Notes: generated by a model from the sequence alone, not told the origin. Counted from the first letter of the stretch, positions 1,137 through 35,901 are shown. The stretch is 36,635 nucleotides of DNA from a virus (IMGVR_UViG_2744054854_000005), one strand, 5' to 3'. A program made the numbers and translations.

Positions 1137-2813
1137 CTAAGCAACATGTAGTTCATCGTTGGCGGAAGTGGCTGCTTTGCGTTCCTGATCAATAGATAGT
1201 GACTCTCTATATTCTTTCGCCTCTGCAAACATTGTCCAGTGGGCATTGATGTTCATATCTTCAATAACCGATTTAATTTCTTTAATATTTACGTTAAAAA
1301 ACTCTTTTCGTGAGTTAATTTTATTGACCTGCTTTTCGTTGAAGACTTTATGCAGATGATTTTCTAATGACGGTGCATCATCACTATAAATCATCGCATG
1401 AACATCGAACGAAAAAGGAACACTAGCATCCCCAAGTTCACGAACACGATCAAGTGGTTCAAGGCGGCGTGTCATTCCAATTTTATATACATCTTCGCCA
1501 AATGAGCCAATATTGCTAATTATATAAACATGGCCTGATCTAGTTTGTTGAGCCATAGAAATAGCTCGTTGGTTTTTAGCTTCAGCTTCTTCATATTTTA
1601 ACTGTAGTTCAGCTATTTTTTGCTCCAAAGCTAAGCGTTGTTCTTCATTTGCAAGCATAAGCTCTTTCGTTGCTTTATTTATAGCTTGCTGAATAGCTTT
1701 CTCTTCTTTTTCGGCTTCTTTTATCGCTTTTTCATACTCTCTACGAGCTCTTTCCTCTTCACGAAGCTGTTCTTTAATCCTTCTTTGCTCCTCTTTTTCT
1801 TCGAGCATAATTTCATTAACTGCAACTCCCCATTTTAGCTCGTTGAGTCGTGCCTGAAGATAGATGTCACTTATTTTTGCGGATCTAAAAGCAGAGCCAT
1901 TATAATTTACAAGTTGAAATGCATCTTTTATTTCTTGGGAAAGTTTTCCAAAATTGTTGTGTTTGACTTTTGATAAAATACTGTCAACTCTTCCATTGAA
2001 GGCATCCAAAACAAAGTTGATAGCAGTATTACGCCTGTTTTGCTCAACATAATCACACGAAGCTGCTTTATTAGTTTTTATTAATGATTTTGTTAACTCC
2101 CTGGCTTTTTGTAATTCCTTGCCTGCATCTGTAAACTCATAATTTTCTGCCAATTCATCAAGTACACTACGGTTAGGGATGATCCATTCATCGCCATAAC
2201 CTTCAATTTTATTTTTCATTGATTTGGCAACTGCTTCATATTTTTCTGCAAACTCTTTAGCTTCATATGCTGAACCAGCAATCTCTTTTGCTCTTTCTTC
2301 TGCATCGGAAATAATTTTTACTGCGTTGTCATTAGCATTTGAGATCAGCTCATTTGCTTTACTGTTGGCATTATCAAGACGTTCTTTGGCTTTCAGGCGT
2401 GCATCGCGAGCGTCTTTGGTGATTGCTATAGCTTCGCTATTAGCGTTGCTTATTGTTATCTGAGCTTGATAACTTGCTTCGTTTACTGTCTTAGCTGCCT
2501 TTATTTGGGCTTCTTCTATTTTTTGCCTAGCTATTGAGTCTGCATTTTTTATCTTATTCTCTGCCTCCATCACTGCGCTGTGCAATTCTTCGTATTGCCA
2601 TAATGGTGCTGCTCGCCCTTCAAGCTCTGATAGATCTCGTGCAGTCTGTGCTAACTTTTCTTGATTTTCACTCAGTTGGCTGGAAAGGGCTATGTTGTTA
2701 GCCGTCAGGTTATCTATGGCGGCTTTGTGTTCTTTACTTTGCTTAAATAATATTATAGCTAGAACAGGGGCGAGAAATGCTAATAAGAATATAACGATGG
2801 AAAATGAATTCAT
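1137..2813 (-). CDS. membrane-anchored coiled-coil protein with C-terminal T5orf172 (GIY-YIG-like) domain; DUF4041-like architecture; candidate defense/abortive-infection cargo
   Basis: 558 aa. N-terminal hydrophobic helix (FSIVIFLLAFLAPVLAIILF), long Ala/Lys/Glu-rich coiled coil, C-terminal motif GHVYIISNIGSFGEDVYKIGMTRRLEPLDRVRELGDASVPFSFDVHAMIYS...LENHLHKVF...RKEFFNV typical of T5orf172. AAGGA ribosome-binding site 8 nt upstream; strongly AT-rich relative to phage core; inserted 20 bp after the cI stop. Confidence 0.8.
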   Translation of the reverse strand: MNSFSIVIFLLAFLAPVLAIILFKQSKEHKAAIDNLTANNIALSSQLSENQEKLAQTARDLSELEGRAAPLWQYEELHSAVMEAENKIKNADSIARQKIEEAQIKAAKTVNEASYQAQITISNANSEAIAITKDARDARLKAKERLDNANSKANELISNANDNAVKIISDAEERAKEIAGSAYEAKEFAEKYEAVAKSMKNKIEGYGDEWIIPNRSVLDELAENYEFTDAGKELQKARELTKSLIKTNKAASCDYVEQNRRNTAINFVLDAFNGRVDSILSKVKHNNFGKLSQEIKDAFQLVNYNGSAFRSAKISDIYLQARLNELKWGVAVNEIMLEEKEEQRRIKEQLREEERARREYEKAIKEAEKEEKAIQQAINKATKELMLANEEQRLALEQKIAELQLKYEEAEAKNQRAISMAQQTRSGHVYIISNIGSFGEDVYKIGMTRRLEPLDRVRELGDASVPFSFDVHAMIYSDDAPSLENHLHKVFNEKQVNKINSRKEFFNVNIKEIKSVIEDMNINAHWTMFAEAKEYRESLSIDQERKAATSANDELHVA

Positions 2814-2833
2814 TTTTAAATCCTTTTACTATA

Positions 2834-3430
2834 TCAATTTGAAACTATTGTACTTCTTATACAAGCAACCACTTCAATATCAGAAAATGCACATTCAAAG
2901 CTATTCTCTGTAGTTGTAATTTTAATCATACCTTTTGGAAGCTTTGTGATTTTTCGAATGGAATAGGTTCCGTCGATGTTGATTAACCAGTGTCCATCAA
3001 GTACTTCAGAAAATTTTTGATCACAAATGTATGTGACAAGCCCATCCTGAATAACAATTGGTGATGAAAGATTTGCAGGAAGAAATGATGAATCGAATAT
3101 ATATGAACCATCTTCAATCATTTTGCCTGCGGTAAGGCGAAACTTGGGAAGCTCTTCTGTGGCTACTGTCAGCGAGCTTTGCTTAAGTCCTTGCCCGGTG
3201 GTTAACCATTTCAGTGAGGTTCCTGTTTCAAGAGCACATTGGATTATCCAGTCTGCAGGAAACGTATCCCGCAAATACCTGTTCGCCAGAGTGCTTTTTG
3301 ATACTTCCAAGTGATCAGCTAAAGCCTGTCGTGTCGTAAAGCCATAAGCTTCGACTAATCGCTCAATCGCAGCCTTACCACCTTTATTGGGATTTATTTT
3401 GATCTCACTTGGGTACTTTGATGTTGACAT
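2834..3430 (-). CDS. cI: 186-type CI immunity repressor
   Basis: 198 aa with N-terminal HTH (GFTTRQALADHLEVSKSTLANRY) and a C-terminal oligomerisation-type domain. Divergent from apl/cII, upstream of int on the same strand. Confidence 0.8.
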   Translation of the reverse strand: MSTSKYPSEIKINPNKGGKAAIERLVEAYGFTTRQALADHLEVSKSTLANRYLRDTFPADWIIQCALETGTSLKWLTTGQGLKQSSLTVATEELPKFRLTAGKMIEDGSYIFDSSFLPANLSSPIVIQDGLVTYICDQKFSEVLDGHWLINIDGTYSIRKITKLPKGMIKITTTENSFECAFSDIEVVACIRSTIVSN

Positions 3431-3525
3431 ATCTCTTTTGCGATCCTAGTATCAGTTTTGTCCCCATTTGGGTACTTGTCACGATTACTACAGGCTCACC
3501 ACAAGCCAATAGGAGATGTTGCATC

Positions 3526-3747
3526 ATGACCCCTAACATTTCAATAACTCTGAATACGCCACATGTCACAATTGAGCGTTATAGCGAACTTACTGGTCTT
3601 TCAATCGACACAATTAACGATATGCTGGCTGACGGTCGCATCCCTCGGCATCGCCTTCGGAAAGACAAGAAAAGAGAAAAGGTGATGATCAACCTTGCTG
3701 CTCTTACCGTTGATGCACTTACTGATTGCAATGTTGTATTCAACTAG
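3526..3747 (+). CDS. apl: Apl/Cox-like excisionase and switch regulator
   Basis: 73-aa basic HTH protein, first gene of the rightward early operon. AGGAGA ribosome-binding site upstream of the ATG at 3526; the longer ORF-track start at 3409 lacks one. Confidence 0.7.
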
Positions 3748-3779
3748 TTCCATTTTGGGATACATCAGGGGTGTCGACC

Positions 3780-4289
3780 ATGTTTGATTACCAAGTTTCC
3801 AAACATCCACATTTTGATGAAGCCTGTCGTGCATTCGCATTGCGCCACAACCTGGTGCAACTGGCAGAACGTGCTGGCATGAATGTGCAGATCCTGCGGA
3901 ACAAGCTGAACCCATCTCAACCTCATTTATTAACCGCACCAGAAATCTGGCTGCTTACCGATCTGACTGAAGATTCAACGCTGGTAGATGGTTTTCTGGC
4001 ACAGATTCACTGCCTGCCATGTGTACCGGTTAATGAGGTTGCAAAAGAGAAACTGCCGCATTACGTCATGAGTGCAACTGCAGAGATCGGGCGTGTTGCT
4101 GCAGGTGCGGTATCTGGTGATGTAAAAACCAGTGCAGGTCGTCGTGATGCTATCAGCAGCATTAACTCTGTTACACGACTGATGGCGTTGGCTGCTGTTT
4201 CATTGCAGGCCCGTTTACAGGCTAATCCTGCGATGGCAAGTGCAGTTGATACTGTAACTGGCCTCGGTGCTTCATTCGGTTTGCTGTGA
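3780..4289 (+). CDS. cII: CII-like transcriptional activator of lysogeny
   Basis: 169 aa, matching the size and position of 186 CII and recalled as closely similar to it ([20 protein letters not shown]...). Internal ATG chosen over the ORF-track start. Confidence 0.75.
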
Positions 4290-4296
4290 GGTGCTT

Positions 4297-4530
4297 ATGC
4301 TGACGAAAGAACCATCATTTGCATCGCTGCTGGTAAAACAAAGCCCGGCAATGCACTACGGTCACGGCTGGATTTATTTACCTTGTGGGAAAAAGTGGCA
4401 TCCAAGTTTTGAATTACAACCCCGGCAACAGGCTTACCGGGGAAGAAATAAAAAGCGATTCCTACAAAGATTTATGGTTAACGTGGCAAACAACCTGCGA
4501 ACCAAGCGAAAAGTTTCTCTTGGAAGCTGA
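4297..4530 (+). CDS. hypothetical small early protein (at the position of 186 fil)
   Basis: 77-aa ORF with GAGGTG ribosome-binding site directly after cII. Overlaps the end of a minus-strand ORF, so the call is uncertain. Confidence 0.4.
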   Translation: MLTKEPSFASLLVKQSPAMHYGHGWIYLPCGKKWHPSFELQPRQQAYRGRNKKRFLQRFMVNVANNLRTKRKVSLGS

Positions 4531-4936
4531 GGTTTACATCGTCAACCCGACCGCAGGCAATAGCCGCTCGTTTGTAAGCTGGATTTAACAAAGAACCGAA
4601 TGTTGTGGAGTCAGAGTGATGCAAAGTTTTCAATTTTTGTGCAATGAACTGTGGAGACAATTCATCCTCGGCGTAAAGCAACTCACCATATTGTCGGCTT
4701 TGTACGCTTGCTCGTTCCTCGATAATAGCTGGTTGCCATACAAGTTGGATTGTTGCGATTACAACAACAGGAAAAGCGAACAACCATTCCAGACCTGTAT
4801 TAGCAAATACAGCGGTTCCGCTTATAAGTTGGATTGCTGTCATTAATTTATCAGCTCGACCATGGAACGTTGCTGTCATTAGTTCAAGGTAATAACAGTA
4901 GTGCAATTGGAAGTATTCGGAGCTTTGTTTAGTCAT
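4478..4936 (-). CDS. hypothetical protein with a central hydrophobic segment (antisense to the early operon)
   Basis: 152-codon open frame in an AT-rich stretch, AGGA 7 nt upstream, hydrophobic segment WLFAFPVVVIATIQLVW. Conflicts with plus-strand ORFs 4385..4588 and 4616..4846; which strand is coding cannot be decided by eye. Confidence 0.35.
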   Translation of the reverse strand: MTKQSSEYFQLHYCYYLELMTATFHGRADKLMTAIQLISGTAVFANTGLEWLFAFPVVVIATIQLVWQPAIIEERASVQSRQYGELLYAEDELSPQFIAQKLKTLHHSDSTTFGSLLNPAYKRAAIACGRVDDVNLSFQEKLFAWFAGCLPR

Positions 4937-4945
4937 GCCGGATTC

Positions 4946-5026
4946 CTATTTTTTATCTTGCCCCGGTTCTGGCTTAGGTGCAGGGGCAGGACGAGGCAAT
5001 ACATGGAAGTTGTCAGAGTCTGACAT
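4946..5026 (-). CDS. possible 26-aa proline-rich leader ORF (MSDSDNFHVLPRPAPAPKPEPGQDKK) coupled to the 152-aa minus-strand ORF
   Basis: ATG preceded by AAGGAGA at 6-nt spacing. Its stop TAG overlaps the AGGA ribosome-binding site of the downstream ORF, 9 nt before that ORF's ATG. Confidence 0.25.
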   Translation of the reverse strand: MSDSDNFHVLPRPAPAPKPEPGQDKK

Positions 5027-5155
5027 CAGGTTTCTCCTTCGAGGGGTAGATGATTGTTGGCGCAAACAGTCTACCACCAAGGCACGCGCCGGGCGTGTGA
5101 AAAAATTCCCGGCACAACTTCAAATAGGCATATGTACGACGAGATAGGAGGGGTA

Positions 5156-5497
5156 ATGGCAATTGATGGCCCAGCGGCAACTGTTCCATTAAGCCCCGGC
5201 GAACGCCTGAATGGACTTAATCACATTGCGGAGTTAAGGGCGAAAGTTTTTGGTCTGAATATTGAGTCAGAGCTTGAGCGGTTTATTAAAGATATGCGTG
5301 ATCCACGGGATATCAATAATGAACAAAATAAACGGGCACTGGCTGCCATATTCTTTATGGCAAAAATTCCAGCTGAACGTCATAGCATCAGCATTAATGA
5401 GCTGACCACTGACGAAAAGCGGGAGCTGATTAAAGCTATGAATCATTTTCGTGCAGTGGTGAGCTTATTTCCTAGACGGCTAACCATGCCGAATTAA
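5156..5497 (+). CDS. hypothetical early protein
   Basis: 113 aa from an internal ATG with GGAGG ribosome-binding site; same orientation as the early operon. Confidence 0.55.
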   Translation: MAIDGPAATVPLSPGERLNGLNHIAELRAKVFGLNIESELERFIKDMRDPRDINNEQNKRALAAIFFMAKIPAERHSISINELTTDEKRELIKAMNHFRAVVSLFPRRLTMPN

Positions 5498-5564
5498 CAA
5501 ACTAATGAAATTAATGGCGTAAACCCGCCGGGTATCCCTTTATCTAAATTCAGGAGAATTGACT

Positions 5565-5798
5565 ATGCGTAATATTGAAACTCTCACGACTAAAACCGGA
5601 CCGGATGATGCAGGGCTTAATATTTTACTGACAGAGGCTCGTCTGGAAGAACGCCGGGCAAGGGCTGAAGCAATGGCAGCTCGCCTTGATAGCCTGGCGT
5701 GTCATATCACATCCAGCCAGCTAAACCACGTCGAAGCAGCAGAACTACTGCGTGTAACTGCTGAAGCAATCCAGAACGAAGCGCAGGAGATCCACTAA
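5565..5798 (+). CDS. hypothetical early protein
   Basis: 77 aa, AGGAGA ribosome-binding site 7 nt upstream of the ATG at 5565. Confidence 0.5.
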   Translation: MRNIETLTTKTGPDDAGLNILLTEARLEERRARAEAMAARLDSLACHITSSQLNHVEAAELLRVTAEAIQNEAQEIH

Positions 5799-6025
5799 TG
5801 GCTGATGCAATGGATCTCGTACAGCAGCGCGTTGAAGAAGAACGCCAGCGCCATATCCGTGCTGCCCGTGCCAAAACGCCGGGCGTGTCCCGCGTGCTTT
5901 GCATTGAGTGTGAAGCGCCAATTCCGCCAGCACGCCGCCGTGCCATTCCGGGTGTGCAGCTTTGCATTACCTGTCAGGAAATCGCAGAGCTGAAAGGCAA
6001 ACATTACAACGGAGGTGCTGTATGA
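5798..6025 (+). CDS. DksA/TraR-family C4 zinc-finger protein
   Basis: 75 aa with CIEC...(17 aa)...CITC four-cysteine motif, as in P2-family TraR-like proteins. Start overlaps the previous stop; stop overlaps the dam start. Confidence 0.7.
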   Translation: MADAMDLVQQRVEEERQRHIRAARAKTPGVSRVLCIECEAPIPPARRRAIPGVQLCITCQEIAELKGKHYNGGAV

Positions 6026-6879
6026 GCACCATCCTGAAATGGGCGGGAAATAAAACCGCCGTAATGTCCGAACTGAAAAAACATCTTCCTGCTGGTCCGC
6101 GACTGGTTGAACCTTTCGCTGGTTCCTGTGCTGTGATGATGGAGACGGATTATCCGTGCTATCTGGTTGCGGATATTAATCCTGATTTAATCAACCTCTA
6201 TAAAAAGGTTGCCGCTGATTGTGAATCGTTTATATCTCGCGCCAAAGTTTTATTTGAGATCGCAAACAGGGAGGTGGCTTATTACAACATAAGGCAGGAG
6301 TTTAATTACTCAACTGAAATTACTGATTTCATGAAAGCGGTATATTTACTGTATCTCAATCGTCACGGTTACCGTGGGTTATGTCGCTATAACAAGAGCG
6401 GGCATTTCAACATTCCCTACGGTAATTATAAAAATCCGTATTTCCCTGAAAAAGAAATTCGCGCATTTGCAGAGAAAGCCCCGCGAGCAACGTTTATCTG
6501 CGCCAGCTTTGATGAAACGCTGGCGATGCTGCAGGTGGGGGATGTGGTGTATTGCGATCCGCCGTATGACGGTACGTTTTCCGGCTATCACACTGATGGC
6601 TTCACTGAGGATGACCAGTATCACCTGGCATCCGTTCTTGAACATCGATCATCTGAAGGTCATCCGGTCATTGTTTCTAACAGTGACACATCCCTGATCC
6701 GTTCGCTGTATCGCAATTTCACTCACCACTACATCAAGGCAAAACGCAGCATCGGCGTGTCGGCTGGCGAGAGTAAATCTGCAACAGAAATCATTGCTGT
6801 TTCCGGGCCGCGCTGCTGGATGGGATTTGATCCTTCGCGTGGCGTGGATAGTTCTGCTGTGTACGAGGTGCGTGTATGA
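6022..6879 (+). CDS. dam: DNA adenine methyltransferase (Dam family)
   Basis: N-terminal LKWAGNK motif and catalytic DPPY ([10 protein letters not shown]). GGAGG ribosome-binding site before the ATG at 6022. Confidence 0.85.
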
Positions 6880-9128
6880 GTCATGACGATATGAGCAACT
6901 CTAGCGGCTTTAACGAGGCTGCCGCAGCATTTTCATGGAACGGCCCGAAAAAGGCCATTAACCCTTATCTGGAACCGGCGGAAGTTGCGCCGGAGTCTGC
7001 ACTTTCAAACATGATCACTCTGTACGCTGCCGATAACGAGCAGGAACAGCGCCGCCGCGAGGCACTGAGTGATCAGGTCTGGGAACGTTATTTCTTTAAT
7101 GAATCCCGTGATCCTGTCCAGCGCGAAATGGAGCAGGATAAGCTCATTAGCCGGGCAAAGCTGGCGCATGAACAGCAGCGTTTTAACCCGGACATGGTCA
7201 TTCTGGCAGATGTCAGCGCCCAGCCTTCCCATATCAGCAAGCCGCAGATGCAACGTATTGAATACTTCAGCAGCCTGGGCAGGCCAAAGGCTTATTCCCG
7301 CTATTTGCGTGAGACGATTAAGCCATGTCTGGAACGGCTGGAGCATGTACGCGACAGTCAGCTATCCACTTCTTTTCGCTTTATGGCAAGCCATGAAGGG
7401 CTGGACGGCCTGTTGATTCTGCCTGAAATGAGTCAGGATCAGGTGAAACGCCTGTCCACCCTTGTTGCTGCGCATATGAGCATGTGCCTTGATGCAGCTT
7501 GTGGCGATTTGTATGCCTCCGATGATGTTAAGCCGGAAGAAATCCGCAAGACATGGGAAAAGGTGGCAGCAGAAACCCTGCGACTGGATGTCATACCGCC
7601 TGCGTTTGAGCAACTCCGCCGGAAAAGAAACCGCCGCAAACCTGTGCCCTATGAACTCATTCCGGGTTCGCTGGCGCGTATGCTGTGCGCCGACTGGTGG
7701 TATCGGAAATTATGGAAGATGCGTTGCGAATGGCGGGAAGAGCAGTTGCGTGCTGTTTGTCTGGTCAGCAAAAAAGCATCTCCCTATGTTAGCTATGAAG
7801 CCGTGATGCATAAACGTGAGCAGCGCCGTAAGTCGCTGGAGTTTTTCCGCTCTCATGAACTGGTGAACGAAGACGGCGACACGCTGGACATGGAGGATGT
7901 GGTAAACGCCAGCAGCAGCAACCCGGCGCATCGCCGCAATGAGATGATGGCCTGCGTTAAAGGTCTGGAGCTTATCGCGGAAATGCGTGGTGACTGCGCC
8001 GTTTTCTACACTATCACCTGTCCGTCACGTTTCCATTCCACGCTAAATAACGGCAGGCCAAACCCGACCTGGACCAACGCGACAGTAAGACAAAGCAGCG
8101 ATTATCTGGTCGGCATGTTTGCTGCATTTCGTAAGGCTATGCACAAATCCGGATTGCGCTGGTATGGCGTGCGGGTGGCTGAGCCGCATCATGACGGTAC
8201 AGTTCACTGGCACCTGTTGTGTTTTATGCGCAAAAAAGATCGCCGCGCCATTACTGCTTTGTTGCGTAAGTTTGCCATACGTGAAGACCGCGAGGAGCTG
8301 GGCAATAACACGGGGCCGCGCTTTAAGTCTGAGTTGATTAACCCGCGCAAAGGAACGCCGACAAGCTACATCGCGAAATATATCAGCAAGAACATTGACG
8401 GGCGTGGTCTGGCTGGCGAGATCAGTAAGGAAACGGGTAAATCTCTGCGTGATAACGCTGAATACGTGAATGCCTGGGCGTCTTTGCATCGTGTTCAGCA
8501 ATTCCGCTTCTTTGGCATTCCGGGGCGCCAGGCTTACCGTGAACTGCGATTGCTGGCTGGTCAGGCGGCAAGGCAACAGGGGGACAAAAAAGCAGGTGCG
8601 CCGGTACTGGATAACCCGCGCNNNNNNNNNNNNNNNNNNNNNNNNNNNNNNNNNNNNNNNNNNGTGAAGTGGAAAATGGTTCGTAAAGCCGTTGACGTTC
8701 AGGAGGCGGTAGCCGACCAGGGCGCTTGCGCCCCTTGGACTCGTGGCAATAACTGTCCCCTTGCTGAAAATTTGAACCAACAAGGGAAAGACAAATCAGC
8801 TTATGGGGATACCAGAACGGACATTACCCGCATGGATGACAAGGAGTTGCACGATTACCTGCACAGTATGAGCAAAAAAGAGCGCCGGGAACTGGCTGCA
8901 AGGTTACGCCTGGTGAAACCGAAACGGCGTAAAGACTACAAACAGCGAATTACAGACCATCAGCGACAGCAGCTCGTCTATGAGCTGAAGTCCAGAGGAT
9001 TTGATGGCAGCGAGAAAGAGGTCGGTTTACTCCTTCGCGGCGGCAGTATTCCGTCAGGAGCAGGCCTGCGTATCTTCTATCGGAACCAGCGTTTGCAGGA
9101 AGATGATAAGTGGCGGGATCTGTATTAA
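6876..9128 (+). CDS. A: replication initiation endonuclease A (rolling-circle initiator, P2 gpA family); contains an assembly gap
   Basis: 750 aa with HWHLLCF and YIAKYISK tyrosine motifs typical of gpA. An in-frame 42-N run lies inside the ORF. Confidence 0.85.
8622..8663. other. assembly gap (42 N) inside gene A
   Basis: Run of n characters; true length unknown. Confidence 0.95.
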
Positions 9129-9936: not shown

Positions 9937-10014
9937 CGCGCGCTCATGGTTGTCAGTAAGAATTTATGGTATTTACAATATATAAATAATCACCATTTCA
10001 AGGAGATCTGTTGC

Positions 10015-10719
10015 ATGGCTATGTTAGTGGAAAATTGCCCAAGGTGCGGTGCGCAAAAAATAGCATTTGATGTTCGAGGGGCTAACTGCTGTGGTACGTA
10101 TGAAACATTTTCCGGCGAAAATTTACCCGAATATGAAGTATATTGTGTATGCAGGGAGTGTAAGAAAACCACAATATATATTTGCGATAGTTTAGAACGG
10201 GGGCGTGATCTTAGCAGTATTAACTGGGGCATGGCCTTATTTAAGTTAACTGATATTGCAAAAGTAAAACGTCCAATTAGTCCAGCAGATTTAGATGCAG
10301 GAGAACCACCAGAATTTTTGCCTCAGCATATACATGAAGCTTTTGTAGAAGGTTCTAAGTGTTTAGCTATTGGTTGCTATAACGCAGCAGGAACTATGTT
10401 TAGGTTATGTTTGGATTATGCAACAAAGGACTTATTACCCAAGGAAGATGCTGAACCAAATCAAAAAATACGGCGAAGCTTAGGGTTAAGAATGAATTGG
10501 TTGTTTGATAATCAGCGGTTGCCAGAGACTTTAAGAGACTTGGCTGAATGTGTAAAAGATGATGGCAATGACGGCGCGCATGAAGGAGTTTTAGATTACG
10601 CGGCTGCAGAGGATCTTGAAGAGTTCACTTATATATTGTTGGAACGTTTATATACTGAACCTCAACGCCTTGTTCAGGCAAAAGCAAGACGTGAGGATAG
10701 AAGAAAAAATAGAGGGTAG
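10015..10719 (+). CDS. zinc-ribbon plus DUF4145-like protein; candidate defense/abortive-infection cargo
   Basis: 234 aa from an internal ATG with AGGAG ribosome-binding site and TATAAA -10-like element upstream. N-terminal CPRCG...CVCREC zinc ribbon; C-terminal region with GNDGAHEG, reminiscent of the conserved R..GN..AH motif of DUF4145. AT-rich; convergent with Q, 8 bp between stops. Confidence 0.65.
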   Translation: MAMLVENCPRCGAQKIAFDVRGANCCGTYETFSGENLPEYEVYCVCRECKKTTIYICDSLERGRDLSSINWGMALFKLTDIAKVKRPISPADLDAGEPPEFLPQHIHEAFVEGSKCLAIGCYNAAGTMFRLCLDYATKDLLPKEDAEPNQKIRRSLGLRMNWLFDNQRLPETLRDLAECVKDDGNDGAHEGVLDYAAAEDLEEFTYILLERLYTEPQRLVQAKARREDRRKNRG

Positions 10720-22975: not shown

Positions 22976-23075
22976 NNNNNNNNNNNNNNNNNNNNNNNNN
23001 NNNNNNNNNNNNNNNNNNNNNNNNNNNNNNNNNNNNNNNNNNNNNNNNNNNNNNNNNNNNNNNNNNNNNNNNNNN
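22976..23075. other. assembly gap (100 N) in the variable tail-fiber region
   Basis: Run of n characters; 100 is a conventional placeholder length, so the missing sequence may be much longer. Confidence 0.95.
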
Positions 23076-33568: not shown

Positions 33569-35254
33569 TTATCCTAATCCTGGCCATACCATGACGATGA
33601 TTGTCCCTGCCAGCGTCAGCAGGACGTTGGCGATTGCATAGGTGCCCGCATAGCCCAGCGCCGGGATGTTACTGCGAGCTGTATCACTGATGATCTCCAT
33701 TGCCGGCGCGCAGGTACGTGCGCCCATCATTGCGCCGAACAACAGCGCGCGGTTCATTCGCAATACATAAGCACCGAACAAGAAACAGATAACCACGGGC
33801 ACCAGACTGACAATCAATCCGGCAATCAACATCTGACCGCCAATCGCGCCCAGGCCGTTATTAATACCGCTACCGGCGCTCAGACCAACGCCTGCCATAA
33901 ACACCATCAAGCCGAACTCTTTCACCATGCTTAATGCACCCTGCGGAATGTAACCGAAGGTCGGGTGGTTAGCACGCATAAAGCCCAGCATAATTCCGGC
34001 GAATAACAACCCGGCAGCGTTCCCCATGCCGAAACTGAATGTGCTGAACTGGAAGGTGATCATCCCGATCATCAGCCCAATAACAAAGAAGGCGCAAAAT
34101 GCCAGCAGGTCAGTGACCTGGCTGTGAATCGAGATAAAGCCGATGCGATCGGCGATGGTTTTTACGCGACGGGCATCACCGCTGACTTGTAAAACGTCAC
34201 CTTTGTTAAGCACGACGTTGTCATCTATCGGCATCTCAATCTGGCTACGAATGACGCGGTTAAGGAAGCAACCGTGATCGGTCAACTTCAGTTGTGCGAG
34301 ACGTTTACCTACAGCGTTATGGTTTTTAACGACCACTTCTTCAGTGACGATACGCATGTCGAGAAGGTCACGATCGAAAACTTCTTTACCGTTACGGAAG
34401 CTGGGATCGAGTCGGGCATGGGCGTCGGGATAGCCTACCAACGCTATTTCATCGCCCATTTGTAGCACGGCATCACCGTCTGGATTTGCCAGAATCCCGT
34501 TACGTCGAATACGTTCAATGTAGCAGCCGGTTTGTCGATAAATACCCAGTTCACGCAGATTTTTGCCGTCGGTCCAGGCCACCAGCTCCGGGCCGACGCG
34601 ATAGGCGCGGATCACCGGTAAATAAACCTTACGGTTGGCATCAGTGTCCAGGCCACGTTCGCGGGCGATTTGCTGGGCGCTGGTCTGTAAGTCCTGATGC
34701 TGCAATTTCGGCAAGTAACGCGCACCAACAATCAAACTCACCAGACCGATTAAATAGGTTAAGGCATACCCGAGGCTCAGATTATCCAGTGCCAGTGAGA
34801 GCTGCCTGCTTTCCATGCCGGAATGACGCAGTGTATCGCCAGCACCGACCAGAACCGGTGTCGACGTCATAGAGCCTGCTAACATACCGGCCGTCAGGCC
34901 AATATCCCAGCCAAACAGCTTACCTAACCCTAAGGCGATCACCAGCGCACTGCCAACCATCACCAGTGCTAACATTAGGTAATTTTTCCCATCGCGAAAA
35001 AAAATGGAAAAAAAGTTCGGTCCGGCTTCAACCCCAACACAGAAAATAAACAGCATAAAGCCAAGATTAAGCGCATCGGTGTTAATGCTGAAATGTTGTT
35101 GGCCTAATAACAGCGATACGACTAAAACGCCAATGGAATTACCCAGTTGGATCGAACCAAGTCGTAACTTTCCGAGACATAGCCCAAGCGCGAGGACCAC
35201 AAATAATAACAGAATGTAATTCCCATTTAACAATTCGGCGACGTTTATATTCAC
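33569..35254 (-). CDS. ybjL: putative transport protein YbjL (AspT/YidE/YbjL family)
   Basis: 561 aa, size and sequence character of E. coli YbjL; multi-pass membrane protein with central soluble domains. Confidence 0.9.
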
Positions 35255-35523
35255 GGAGGCTAACTTCTTGTTTACTAGTAAGCTGTTGAAAGAAATGGTA
35301 ATTTACGATAATGTTTTTTACCAGAATTCAGGGCGCAGATTCATTCAGCGCACCTAAACGATAGTAAAGTAACAATATATTTTACTAGTGTAATCACATT
35401 AGGTATCAACGGCTATATGAATTGCGTTGGCCTATATTAGCATGGAATGCGAAGCGGCTTTATCTTACTGAACGCCACACTGGCGAAAAATGTGTTCGAT
35501 AGACGCAGTGTCAGGAGGAACGA

Positions 35524-35901
35524 GTGAAACATAAACAACGTTGGGCGGGGGCAATCTGCTGTTTTGTCCTCTTCATTGTGGTGTGCCTTTTTCTGGCGAC
35601 GCACATGAAAGGCGCTTTTCGGGCTGCCGGGCATCCTGAAATCGGCTTGCTATTTTTCATTCTTCCTGGAGCAGTCGCCAGCTTCTTTTCACAGCGTAGA
35701 GAAGTCCTGAAACCTCTGTTTGGCGCAATGCTGGCGGCACCCTGTTCGATGCTCATTATGCGGCTGTTTTTTTCACCGACGCGCTCATTCTGGCAAGAGC
35801 TGGCATGGTTATTAAGTGCGGTGTTCTGGTGTGCGCTGGGGGCACTGTGTTTCTTATTTATCAGTAGTTTGTTTAAACCACAGCACAGAAAAAATCAGTA
35901 A
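35524..35901 (+). CDS. ybjM: inner membrane protein YbjM
   Basis: 125 aa, GTG start, hydrophobic; conserved neighbour of grxA. Confidence 0.85.
   Translation: MKHKQRWAGAICCFVLFIVVCLFLATHMKGAFRAAGHPEIGLLFFILPGAVASFFSQRREVLKPLFGAMLAAPCSMLIMRLFFSPTRSFWQELAWLLSAVFWCALGALCFLFISSLFKPQHRKNQ

Follow-up and report, generated by a model that had tools for sequence, protein, structure and literature searches.

A proline-rich micropeptide gene and a gene for a predicted two-helix membrane protein, paired in an accessory cassette antisense to the early operon of a P2-type prophage

Why would a temperate phage carry two open reading frames (ORFs) backwards within its own early operon, and are both of them genes? 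The question is raised by a viral stretch of 36,635 nucleotides (nt) (IMGVR_UViG_2744054854_000005; 'the window' hereafter is this whole stretch of analysed DNA), a Fels-2/186-like P2-type prophage. Between fil and a DUF5347 gene, antisense to the rightward early operon, sits a two-ORF cassette that an earlier note, made from the bare sequence, had singled out: a proline-rich ORF of 26 codons followed, after a 9-nt spacer, by one of 152 codons with a hydrophobic segment, each with a Shine-Dalgarno (SD) site. All of these elements are indeed present, and the comparisons made here show the smaller ORF to be a real gene, conserved as a pair with the larger one. The features on which the argument turns are as follows.

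4946-5026, minus strand: proline-rich micropeptide gene of 26 codons, MSDSDNFHVLPRPAPAPKPEPGQDKK, read from the sequence; ATG at 5026-5024, stop codon TAG at 4948-4946
5034-5039, minus strand: SD sequence of the micropeptide gene (AAGGAG), separated from the ATG by 7 nt; AAGGAG or AAGGGG is kept in relatives
4937-4948, minus strand: putative coupling junction, in which the micropeptide stop TAG overlaps the SD sequence TAGGA of the 152-codon gene across the 9-nt spacer
4478-4936, minus strand: gene for a predicted two-transmembrane (two-TM) helical-hairpin protein of 152 amino acids (aa), phrog_6315 family, SLATT-like; ATG at 4936, 152 codons, annotated on this strand by the Prokaryotic Genome Annotation Pipeline (PGAP)
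4297-4530, plus strand: fil (186 Fil family; Pfam Phage_186_Fil, 1.1e-23; PGAP coordinates)

The coding strand of the cassette

Because homology, substitution pattern and PGAP annotation agree, the coding strand of the cassette, which the earlier note had left open, is here assigned to the minus strand. The 152-aa protein matches phrog_6315, a PHROG of unknown function, at E 1.7e-75, with residues 1-152 falling on profile positions 1-152, and its homologues in Escherichia, Salmonella, Kosakonia, Yersinia, Hafnia and Pectobacterium are all 152 aa long and 67-98% identical. Over the cassette region the window and Fels-2 align without gaps at 85% identity; within 4478-4936 their differences fall 17, 4 and 64 times at codon positions 1, 2 and 3 of the minus frame, so that, counted by codon, 56 are synonymous and 16 non-synonymous. 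On the plus strand the best frame, which shares its third positions with the minus frame, scores 42 synonymous and 29 non-synonymous, and the remaining two score 9/63 and 2/71. Of 5,426 complete E. coli genomes, 40 have the region, and in these PGAP calls the minus-strand gene, as 'hypothetical protein'.

Could the true early genes be on the plus strand after all, with the minus-strand ORFs as their shadows? The window holds three small plus-strand ORFs, of 76 aa (4616-4846), 67 aa (4385-4588) and 70 aa (4935-5147), and taking them for fil/dhr-like genes would suit both the plus-strand orientation of the surrounding operon and the RefSeq record of Fels-2 (NC_010463), in which a 135-aa plus-strand ORF, STM2733.1.Fels2, is annotated at 2914-3318. 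We regard this as extremely improbable. None of the three matches a family in Pfam, PHROGs, NCBIfam or PADLOC; the longest shifts from 76 aa in the window to 135 aa in Fels-2, genomes that are 85% identical here; and the homologues, the better-fitting substitution pattern and the PGAP choice in E. coli are all on the minus strand. Nor did the 186 fil/dhr-like plus-strand proteins for which the earlier note had allowed materialize, the only Fil-like gene being the separate fil, which runs convergently to the 152-aa gene and overlaps its 3' end by 53 nt (4478-4530), the last of fil. STM2733.1.Fels2 and the 221-aa vBYenM4218_008 (2812-3477, minus strand, in the record of Yersinia phage vB_YenM_42.18), both of which lie on the strand opposite to the conserved 152/155-aa gene, are probably wrong-strand calls.

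The micropeptide: leader or product

The small ORF differs between the window and E. coli NGF1 by 8 synonymous and 4 non-synonymous codons, and 11 of the 14 changes fall at position 3, versus only 0-2 synonymous differences when either remaining frame of that strand is read; judged by its codon changes, it is under purifying selection among the Enterobacterales copies. For a wider view, additional loci were drawn from annotated phages, from contigs with distant homologues, and from IMG/VR with a degenerate DNA pattern encoding AW[FL]AGDLP, the C-terminal motif of the larger protein; the pattern returned 51 loci, most of which were verified as members with the family profile, and the 38 distinct loci finally compared form 14 clusters (lineages) at 60% identity. 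In 10-11 of these 14 clusters the main start codon is preceded, at a distance of 8-15 nt, by the end of a proline-rich micro-ORF (13-43 codons), and in the locus L046 two such ORFs lie farther upstream, some 95-190 nt from the main gene. The micropeptides share a motif of approximately [DE][YF]E[EK][RK]-[HQ][VM]P-x(0-3)-[RK]P-x-P-x-PKP with a short charged tail behind it; the part [HQ][VM]P..[RK]P.P.PKP recurs upstream of the homologues in 10-12 lineages; MKIEKEERSHVPPRPTPQPKPR (Haemophilus), MQNAEYEERHMPPYKRPEPPKPDDDPD and MLINQFGDFPRPSPDGQVPYRPAPAPRPPEKP may serve as examples. The fetched loci contain 749 other ORFs that are 100 aa or longer, and not a single comparable proline-rich upstream micro-ORF was found before any of these.

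Residues other than proline (F/Y, H, V/M and R/K) are kept across the micropeptides, and the peptide of the window has a net charge of 0, one Arg and no consecutive prolines. A Pfam scan of ten micropeptides gave no match, and the window peptide was not found in a collection of 15 billion proteins, which holds only three longer relatives (one labelled hypothetical, two without a name); it is therefore unannotated. Two observations on neighbouring sequences may be added here. Window positions 4900-5100, which comprise the micro-ORF, the junction and the leader, differ from Fels-2 at only 3 positions, none of them in 4950-5049, as compared with 5-14 differences per 50 nt in adjacent coding sequence, a near-identity that suggests recent exchange or strong constraint. 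L046, besides its two proline-rich ORFs, has a strongly hydrophobic micro-ORF of 24 codons (MLVVLPLTAIVVRLVVTPILDLII) located between them and the main gene, 15 nt upstream of the latter.

What does the larger ORF of the pair encode? The profile search of 1.84 billion cluster representatives (50% clustering) gave a family of 170 members, nearly all of them 150-165 aa long. The window protein has hydrophobic segments at residues ~31-47 and 50-68, and its AlphaFold2 model (mean predicted local distance difference test score, pLDDT, 83.7, from a 44-sequence alignment) shows a long helical hairpin (6-44 and 50-87) followed by three short helices. Searches of the Protein Data Bank (PDB) returned generic helical matches only, and a sequence search of the PDB with the family profile returned none. 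Against the predicted viral structures of BFVD, SLATT-named proteins make up 8 of the top 28 Foldseek matches, all weak (E 0.03-2, TM-score 0.23-0.55). Among 97 diverse family members, PADLOC gave weak matches to '2TM Effector' (CBASS) in nine and to 'RTasSLATT' in five, with a best E of 2.7e-4, and Pfam gave marginal ones to SLATT_4 (E 0.04) and PycTM (E 0.02) in one member each; a Pfam scan at E<=10 of consensus sequences and distant members returned no SLATT match, and nr names one family member 'SLATT family 5'. The DRT10 defence system has SLATT-5 as its transmembrane effector (bioRxiv 10.64898/2026.04.29.721553).

The earlier note had pictured a short leader ORF coupled to a membrane protein. 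The pair and the membrane segments have held up, and coupling itself would fit the junction well: in most lineages the micro-ORF stop abuts or overlaps the SD sequence of the main gene (TAGGA, TAAGGA or TGAGG; GGA/GGAG/GGT), with a gap of 8-10 nt, an arrangement consistent with translational coupling. A role as leader and nothing else has fared less well, since relatives carry paralogous proline-rich micro-ORFs downstream of the membrane-protein gene. In seven lineages there are one or two further such ORFs with the same motif (MAEPTPLQESYQPKRPTPPPKK, MSRPIIPNHIPPLPRPPSPQPKPK and MDNFAQDHDKQWHVPPKPRPPSPPKK are examples), located within ~200 nt after the family gene (L011/L015 at ~4483-4550; also L023, L030, L050, L062, L068 and L032), whereas the window has the upstream copy only. 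Owing to these extra copies, the peptides look like a set of paralogous products in their own right, synthesized along with the membrane protein.

The main rival would still make the micro-ORF a cis-acting leader only, a peptide with no function of its own, whose translation couples, damps or senses (proline-tRNA, EF-P or Mg2+), thereby setting the level of a potentially toxic membrane protein. MgtL and MgtP, the proline-codon leader peptides of Salmonella mgtA and mgtCBR, would be its models. The fixed gap and the stop/SD overlap speak for such a device, as do the strength of the micro-ORF SD relative to the weaker one of the main ORF and the occurrence in many relatives of PPP, PPE or PPK runs, which are EF-P-dependent pause sites. 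Yet the window peptide lacks consecutive prolines, the non-proline residues are conserved, copies stand after the membrane-protein gene or ~95-190 nt before it, and no significant RNA structure links the two ORFs, the predicted fold of the micro-ORF leader and junction being no better than that of shuffled sequences (z = 0.34). We therefore consider a leader-only role unlikely, though it retains a real minority chance of being correct.

Exchange of the cassette and its putative control signals

The comparison with sister phages shows that the module is swapped in and out, which supports its reading as a self-contained accessory unit (a moron) of temperate phages, a possibility raised in the earlier note. 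The segment concerned is the following.

4374-5155, no strand assigned: segment differing from the Klebsiella sister phages (insertion or replacement unit); in a blastn comparison with 4LV2017, homology ends at 4373 and resumes at 5156

Phages of the Klebsiella 4LV2017 type have both flanks at 95-96% identity and unrelated DNA in place of this segment, and in E. coli the module occurs in the 40 complete genomes already mentioned. Homology between the window and the NGF1 copy stops near 5117. In NGF1 (locus L022) and NC101 the cassette lies between two Fil-family genes (2358-2591 and 3215-3457 in the NGF1 locus), which suggests insertion by recombination within fil. The GC content of the cassette is not distinguishable from that of its neighbours.

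Farther afield, the pairing is kept across the 14 lineages, down to ~25% identity of the large protein; the phages concerned are P2-like or lambdoid, and their hosts belong to Enterobacterales and Haemophilus. In most of the loci examined the module runs opposite to its neighbours, and in lambdoid prophages, those of Haemophilus included, it opposes all flanking genes. The lambdoid loci examined place it between the early-left recombination genes (RecT, YqaJ, RdgC) and a repressor (cI) with helix-turn-helix and S24 domains 0.3-2 kb away, GmrSD and HEPN genes sometimes intervening, as in Haemophilus prophages, and in a P2-like viral contig it adjoins gpA.

Does such a unit bring its own control signals? 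The putative promoter and terminator are promoter-like and terminator-like sequence matches, and a conserved structured element precedes the micropeptide gene.

5083-5113, minus strand: conserved element with two overlapping hairpins, S1, GCCGGG (5113-5108)/CCCGGC (5093-5088), and S2, CACGC (5097-5093)/GCGTG (5087-5083)
5068-5076, minus strand: extended -10-like element TGgTAGACT (putative promoter), 41 nt upstream of the micropeptide ATG
5052-5060, minus strand: CA-rich box CCAACAATC, between the -10-like element and the SD sequence, from the leader comparison; present as a single copy in the window
4420-4442, minus strand: terminator-like hairpin with a weak T tract, 36 nt after the stop of the 152-aa gene, inside fil antisense (consensus and own scans)

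The ~90 nt preceding the micro-ORF are conserved between copies whose outer flanks differ, and across lineages they begin with GTTrTGTGCC. Within them, S1 is paired in 100% of 98 cells, with compensatory changes in 3 of its 6 pairs, a score that none of 500 shuffles equalled. For S2, which is represented by eight different stem sequences, stems formed by each copy's own pair average 5.1 bp, whereas the cross-pair and shuffled controls reach 3.1-3.2 bp. With a covariance model, the element is recovered at window 5077-5115 (40.8 bits), and Rfam matches over 3000-7000 were at chance level only. As the loop between the stems is too short for a pseudoknot, S1 and S2 probably alternate; an H-type pseudoknot, with a connecting loop of only 0-3 nt after S1, was set aside in favour of alternative hairpins. 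A terminator was likewise rejected, given that most copies lack a T tract and that the element precedes the first gene of tandem modules and does not follow the last. The covariance model also finds the element before other small genes on the same strand, namely a 65-aa zinc-ribbon ORF (L032) and the 171-aa QPB11295 of Providencia phage PSTNGR2lys; its coordinates are 4234-4271 (minus strand) in L032, 1883-1920 (plus) in L004 and 3552-3587 (plus) in L046. It may thus be a control element shared by several accessory genes.

Downstream of the hairpins, the -10-like element reads TGgTAGACT, TGgTATATT or TGgTATTTT in the Enterobacterales copies, the Haemophilus copies have TTGTAT-17-TATAAT, and 8 of 19 examined loci have a -10-like hexamer 32-42 nt ahead of the ATG of the micro-ORF. 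In most lineages this hexamer is flanked by two direct repeats that co-vary from phage to phage, as exemplified by two copies each of CCCCAACAAC, GCGACTACA (Haemophilus) and CCACAACG (Providencia). Clearer terminators, with a hairpin and a T run, follow the cassette in L011, L039, L059, L050 and L068.

The remainder of the prophage offers further material for comparison. Its minus strand carries the integrase, a 558-aa gene and CI (2834-3430), and its plus-strand early operon comprises apl, cII, fil, the DUF5347 gene (5156-5497), DUF2732, traR, dam and the replication gene A. The 558-aa gene (1137-2813, minus strand), between integrase and CI, is a strong PD-Lambda-1 homologue (PADLOC E 9e-120; Pfam DUF4041 and T5orf172/MUG113), so that the prophage has a known defence gene as well. 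Directly after gene A, at 9946-10719 on the plus strand, a 257-aa DUF4145 protein with a weak PADLOC match to PD-T7-4 (E 1.7e-5) is possibly the product of another accessory or defence gene. Runs of N occupy 8622-8663 (42 bases) and 22976-23075 (100 bases), the former breaking the reading frame of gene A, whose translation shows X there. At 33569-35901, after the last large prophage ORFs, stand host genes (ybjM and a YbjL-type transporter, Asp-Al_Ex/TrkA_C), and the prophage therefore probably ends upstream of 33569.

A possible role and its relation to known systems

What might such a module do for its phage? Because it is repeatedly placed backwards in early or immunity regions, we infer that it is expressed in the lysogen and silenced by antisense early transcription upon induction, and we tentatively favour, at somewhat less than even confidence, a membrane effector with a peptide partner that serves in conflict between phages, by abortive infection or exclusion. 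In a lysogen, where CI silences early transcription, the module would be transcribed from its own promoter, probably the extended -10 element TGgTAGACT (5076-5068). Ribosomes would load at AAGGAG, make the 26-residue peptide, stop at the UAG that overlaps the next SD sequence and restart 9 nt downstream on the 152-residue protein, so that, as we propose, the two products are made together. The larger one would insert into the inner membrane, its two helices forming a hairpin and both termini staying cytoplasmic, in the manner of the SLATT/2TM effectors of CBASS and DRT10, and the peptide, acting in trans, would gate or inhibit it or else sense the trigger. A superinfecting phage might then release the membrane protein, which would permeabilize the membrane or block entry, resulting in abortive infection or exclusion. 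Upon induction of the prophage itself, early transcription would run antisense through the module and switch it off.

Several points weigh against this proposal. The similarity to SLATT proteins is weak at its best (Foldseek E 0.03, PADLOC E 2.7e-4), and the window protein has no significant match in Pfam, NCBIfam or PADLOC (in Pfam and PADLOC, none at E<=1). The usual sensor partners of SLATT proteins (SMODS, SLOG, reverse transcriptase (RT) or TIR) are not adjacent, the neighbours being fil and the DUF5347 gene here and repressor, recombination or replication genes in relatives; it is for these two reasons, weak similarity and missing sensors, that we call the protein SLATT-like and do not file it as a member. 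The peptide is missing in 2-3 of the 14 lineages (L065, L052), and the peptide-less L065 is moreover co-oriented with its neighbours. Among longer family members no natural fusion of peptide and protein was seen, their extensions looking like gene-calling artefacts. The putative promoter, lastly, is a consensus match only, and a standard scan found none in 5027-5117.

Would a device for keeping the prophage in place account for the same facts? The tight two-gene architecture with the small gene first recalls toxin-antitoxin modules, and a peptide restraining a membrane toxin could ensure prophage retention; alternatively, since it converges on the early operon and reaches into the end of fil, the module could, through its antisense transcription, damp leaky early transcription towards gene A and so stabilize lysogeny. 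We consider either version improbable, as no similarity to known toxin-antitoxin families was found, sister phages manage without the module, and the amino-acid conservation of both products speaks against a purely transcriptional role.

The roles could also be reversed, such that the proline-rich peptides are the effectors, intracellular analogues of proline-rich antimicrobial peptides (PrAMPs) acting on the ribosome exit tunnel or DnaK, and the membrane protein is their immunity, export or anchoring partner. Oncocin, pyrrhocoricin, drosocin, apidaecin and Bac7 are the familiar members of that class. Several paralogous peptides per locus would agree with this, and the stretches VLPRPAPAP, PPYKRPEPPKP and VPYRPAPAPRPP bear a likeness, of low complexity, to the cores (YLPRP/PRPxP) found in oncocin, pyrrhocoricin and drosocin. 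The charge of the peptides is not uniformly cationic, however (0 in the window, -4 as counted for the L068 peptide), they have no Pfam match, and we rate this reversal as very unlikely.

Returning to the membrane effector with its peptide partner, one can extend it into a bolder and decidedly speculative version, which we consider unlikely: a new immunity module of temperate phages of Gammaproteobacteria, in which one to three unannotated proline-rich micropeptides per locus are ligands or triggers of a stand-alone SLATT-like pore, or act on the ribosome or DnaK as intracellular PrAMPs, and in which a shared 5' element, with two mutually exclusive, covarying hairpins and co-evolving direct repeats, absent from Rfam, controls the module and nearby small genes on the same strand. 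What would follow should the module prove to serve in defence or exclusion? It would present a SLATT-like effector that stands alone, partnered by a micropeptide and not by an enzyme, and missed by current defence catalogues. It would also add a family of conserved phage peptides, ~22-43 residues long, that gene callers skip. The analysis further corrects the records of two reference phages, Fels-2 and Yersinia vB_YenM_42.18, in which the annotated strand is probably the wrong one, and the conserved structured element may regulate several genes expressed in lysogens. Since S. Typhimurium LT2 (Fels-2) and E. coli NC101 and NGF-1, all of them tractable, carry the ~700-bp module, the proposals made here are directly testable.

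How does the module compare with systems already known? With PrAMPs its peptides share a length of ~20-30 residues and PRP/PxP cores after an aromatic or hydrophobic residue; unlike them, the phage peptide would be made inside the bacterium, and that of the window is not strongly cationic (net charge 0, one Arg) and falls short of the class in Pro-Arg repeats and charge. The MgtL/MgtP leaders likewise place a short proline-rich ORF with alternating P-x-P before a membrane-protein gene, but here there is no attenuator structure between the ORFs, the spacer is only 9 nt long and peptide copies also occur downstream of the gene; a regulatory leader or attenuator of the MgtL/TnaC type is disfavoured on these same grounds (leader fold z = 0.34, 9-nt spacer, proline-rich ORFs downstream of the gene in 7 lineages).

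As for position, the hotspot of E. coli P2-like phages adjoins the cos site (Rousset et al. 2022, PMC9122126), whereas the slot of the module is between fil and the DUF5347 gene, and an identity of the two was ruled out because the cos-site hotspot lies elsewhere. Closer parallels are the prophage morons and exclusion genes, such as rexAB and sieB of lambda, sieB of P22, gp15 of HK97 and old, tin and fun of P2. They too are accessory genes with their own expression signals (putative in our case), present in some but not all members of a phage group; among the lambdoid loci examined, the module also lies near the repressor gene, with expression in the lysogen by inference. It differs from them in lacking sequence similarity to any and in lying antisense inside the early operon.

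The cassette was not found described in the literature on SLATT proteins, prophages, leader peptides or phage proline-rich peptides. Set beside the SLATT/2TM effectors (SLATT-5 of DRT10/UG17, '2TM' of CBASS and PycTM of Pycsar), the 152-aa protein differs in that it has no significant Pfam SLATT match, that no nucleotide cyclase, reverse transcriptase or TIR sensor is adjacent, and that its partner is one or more proline-rich micropeptides. What it has in common with them is a small size (~150-200 aa) and carriage on mobile elements; its predicted architecture of N-terminal helix, two-TM hairpin and helical cytoplasmic tail may be a further shared trait, SLATT-named proteins being among the top BFVD fold matches, and family members have the weak '2TM Effector' and 'RTasSLATT' matches in PADLOC. 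Two known kinds, the prophage moron and the 2TM effector, thus seem to meet here in a new configuration, accompanied by a peptide family that lacks annotation and by a structured leader not described before.

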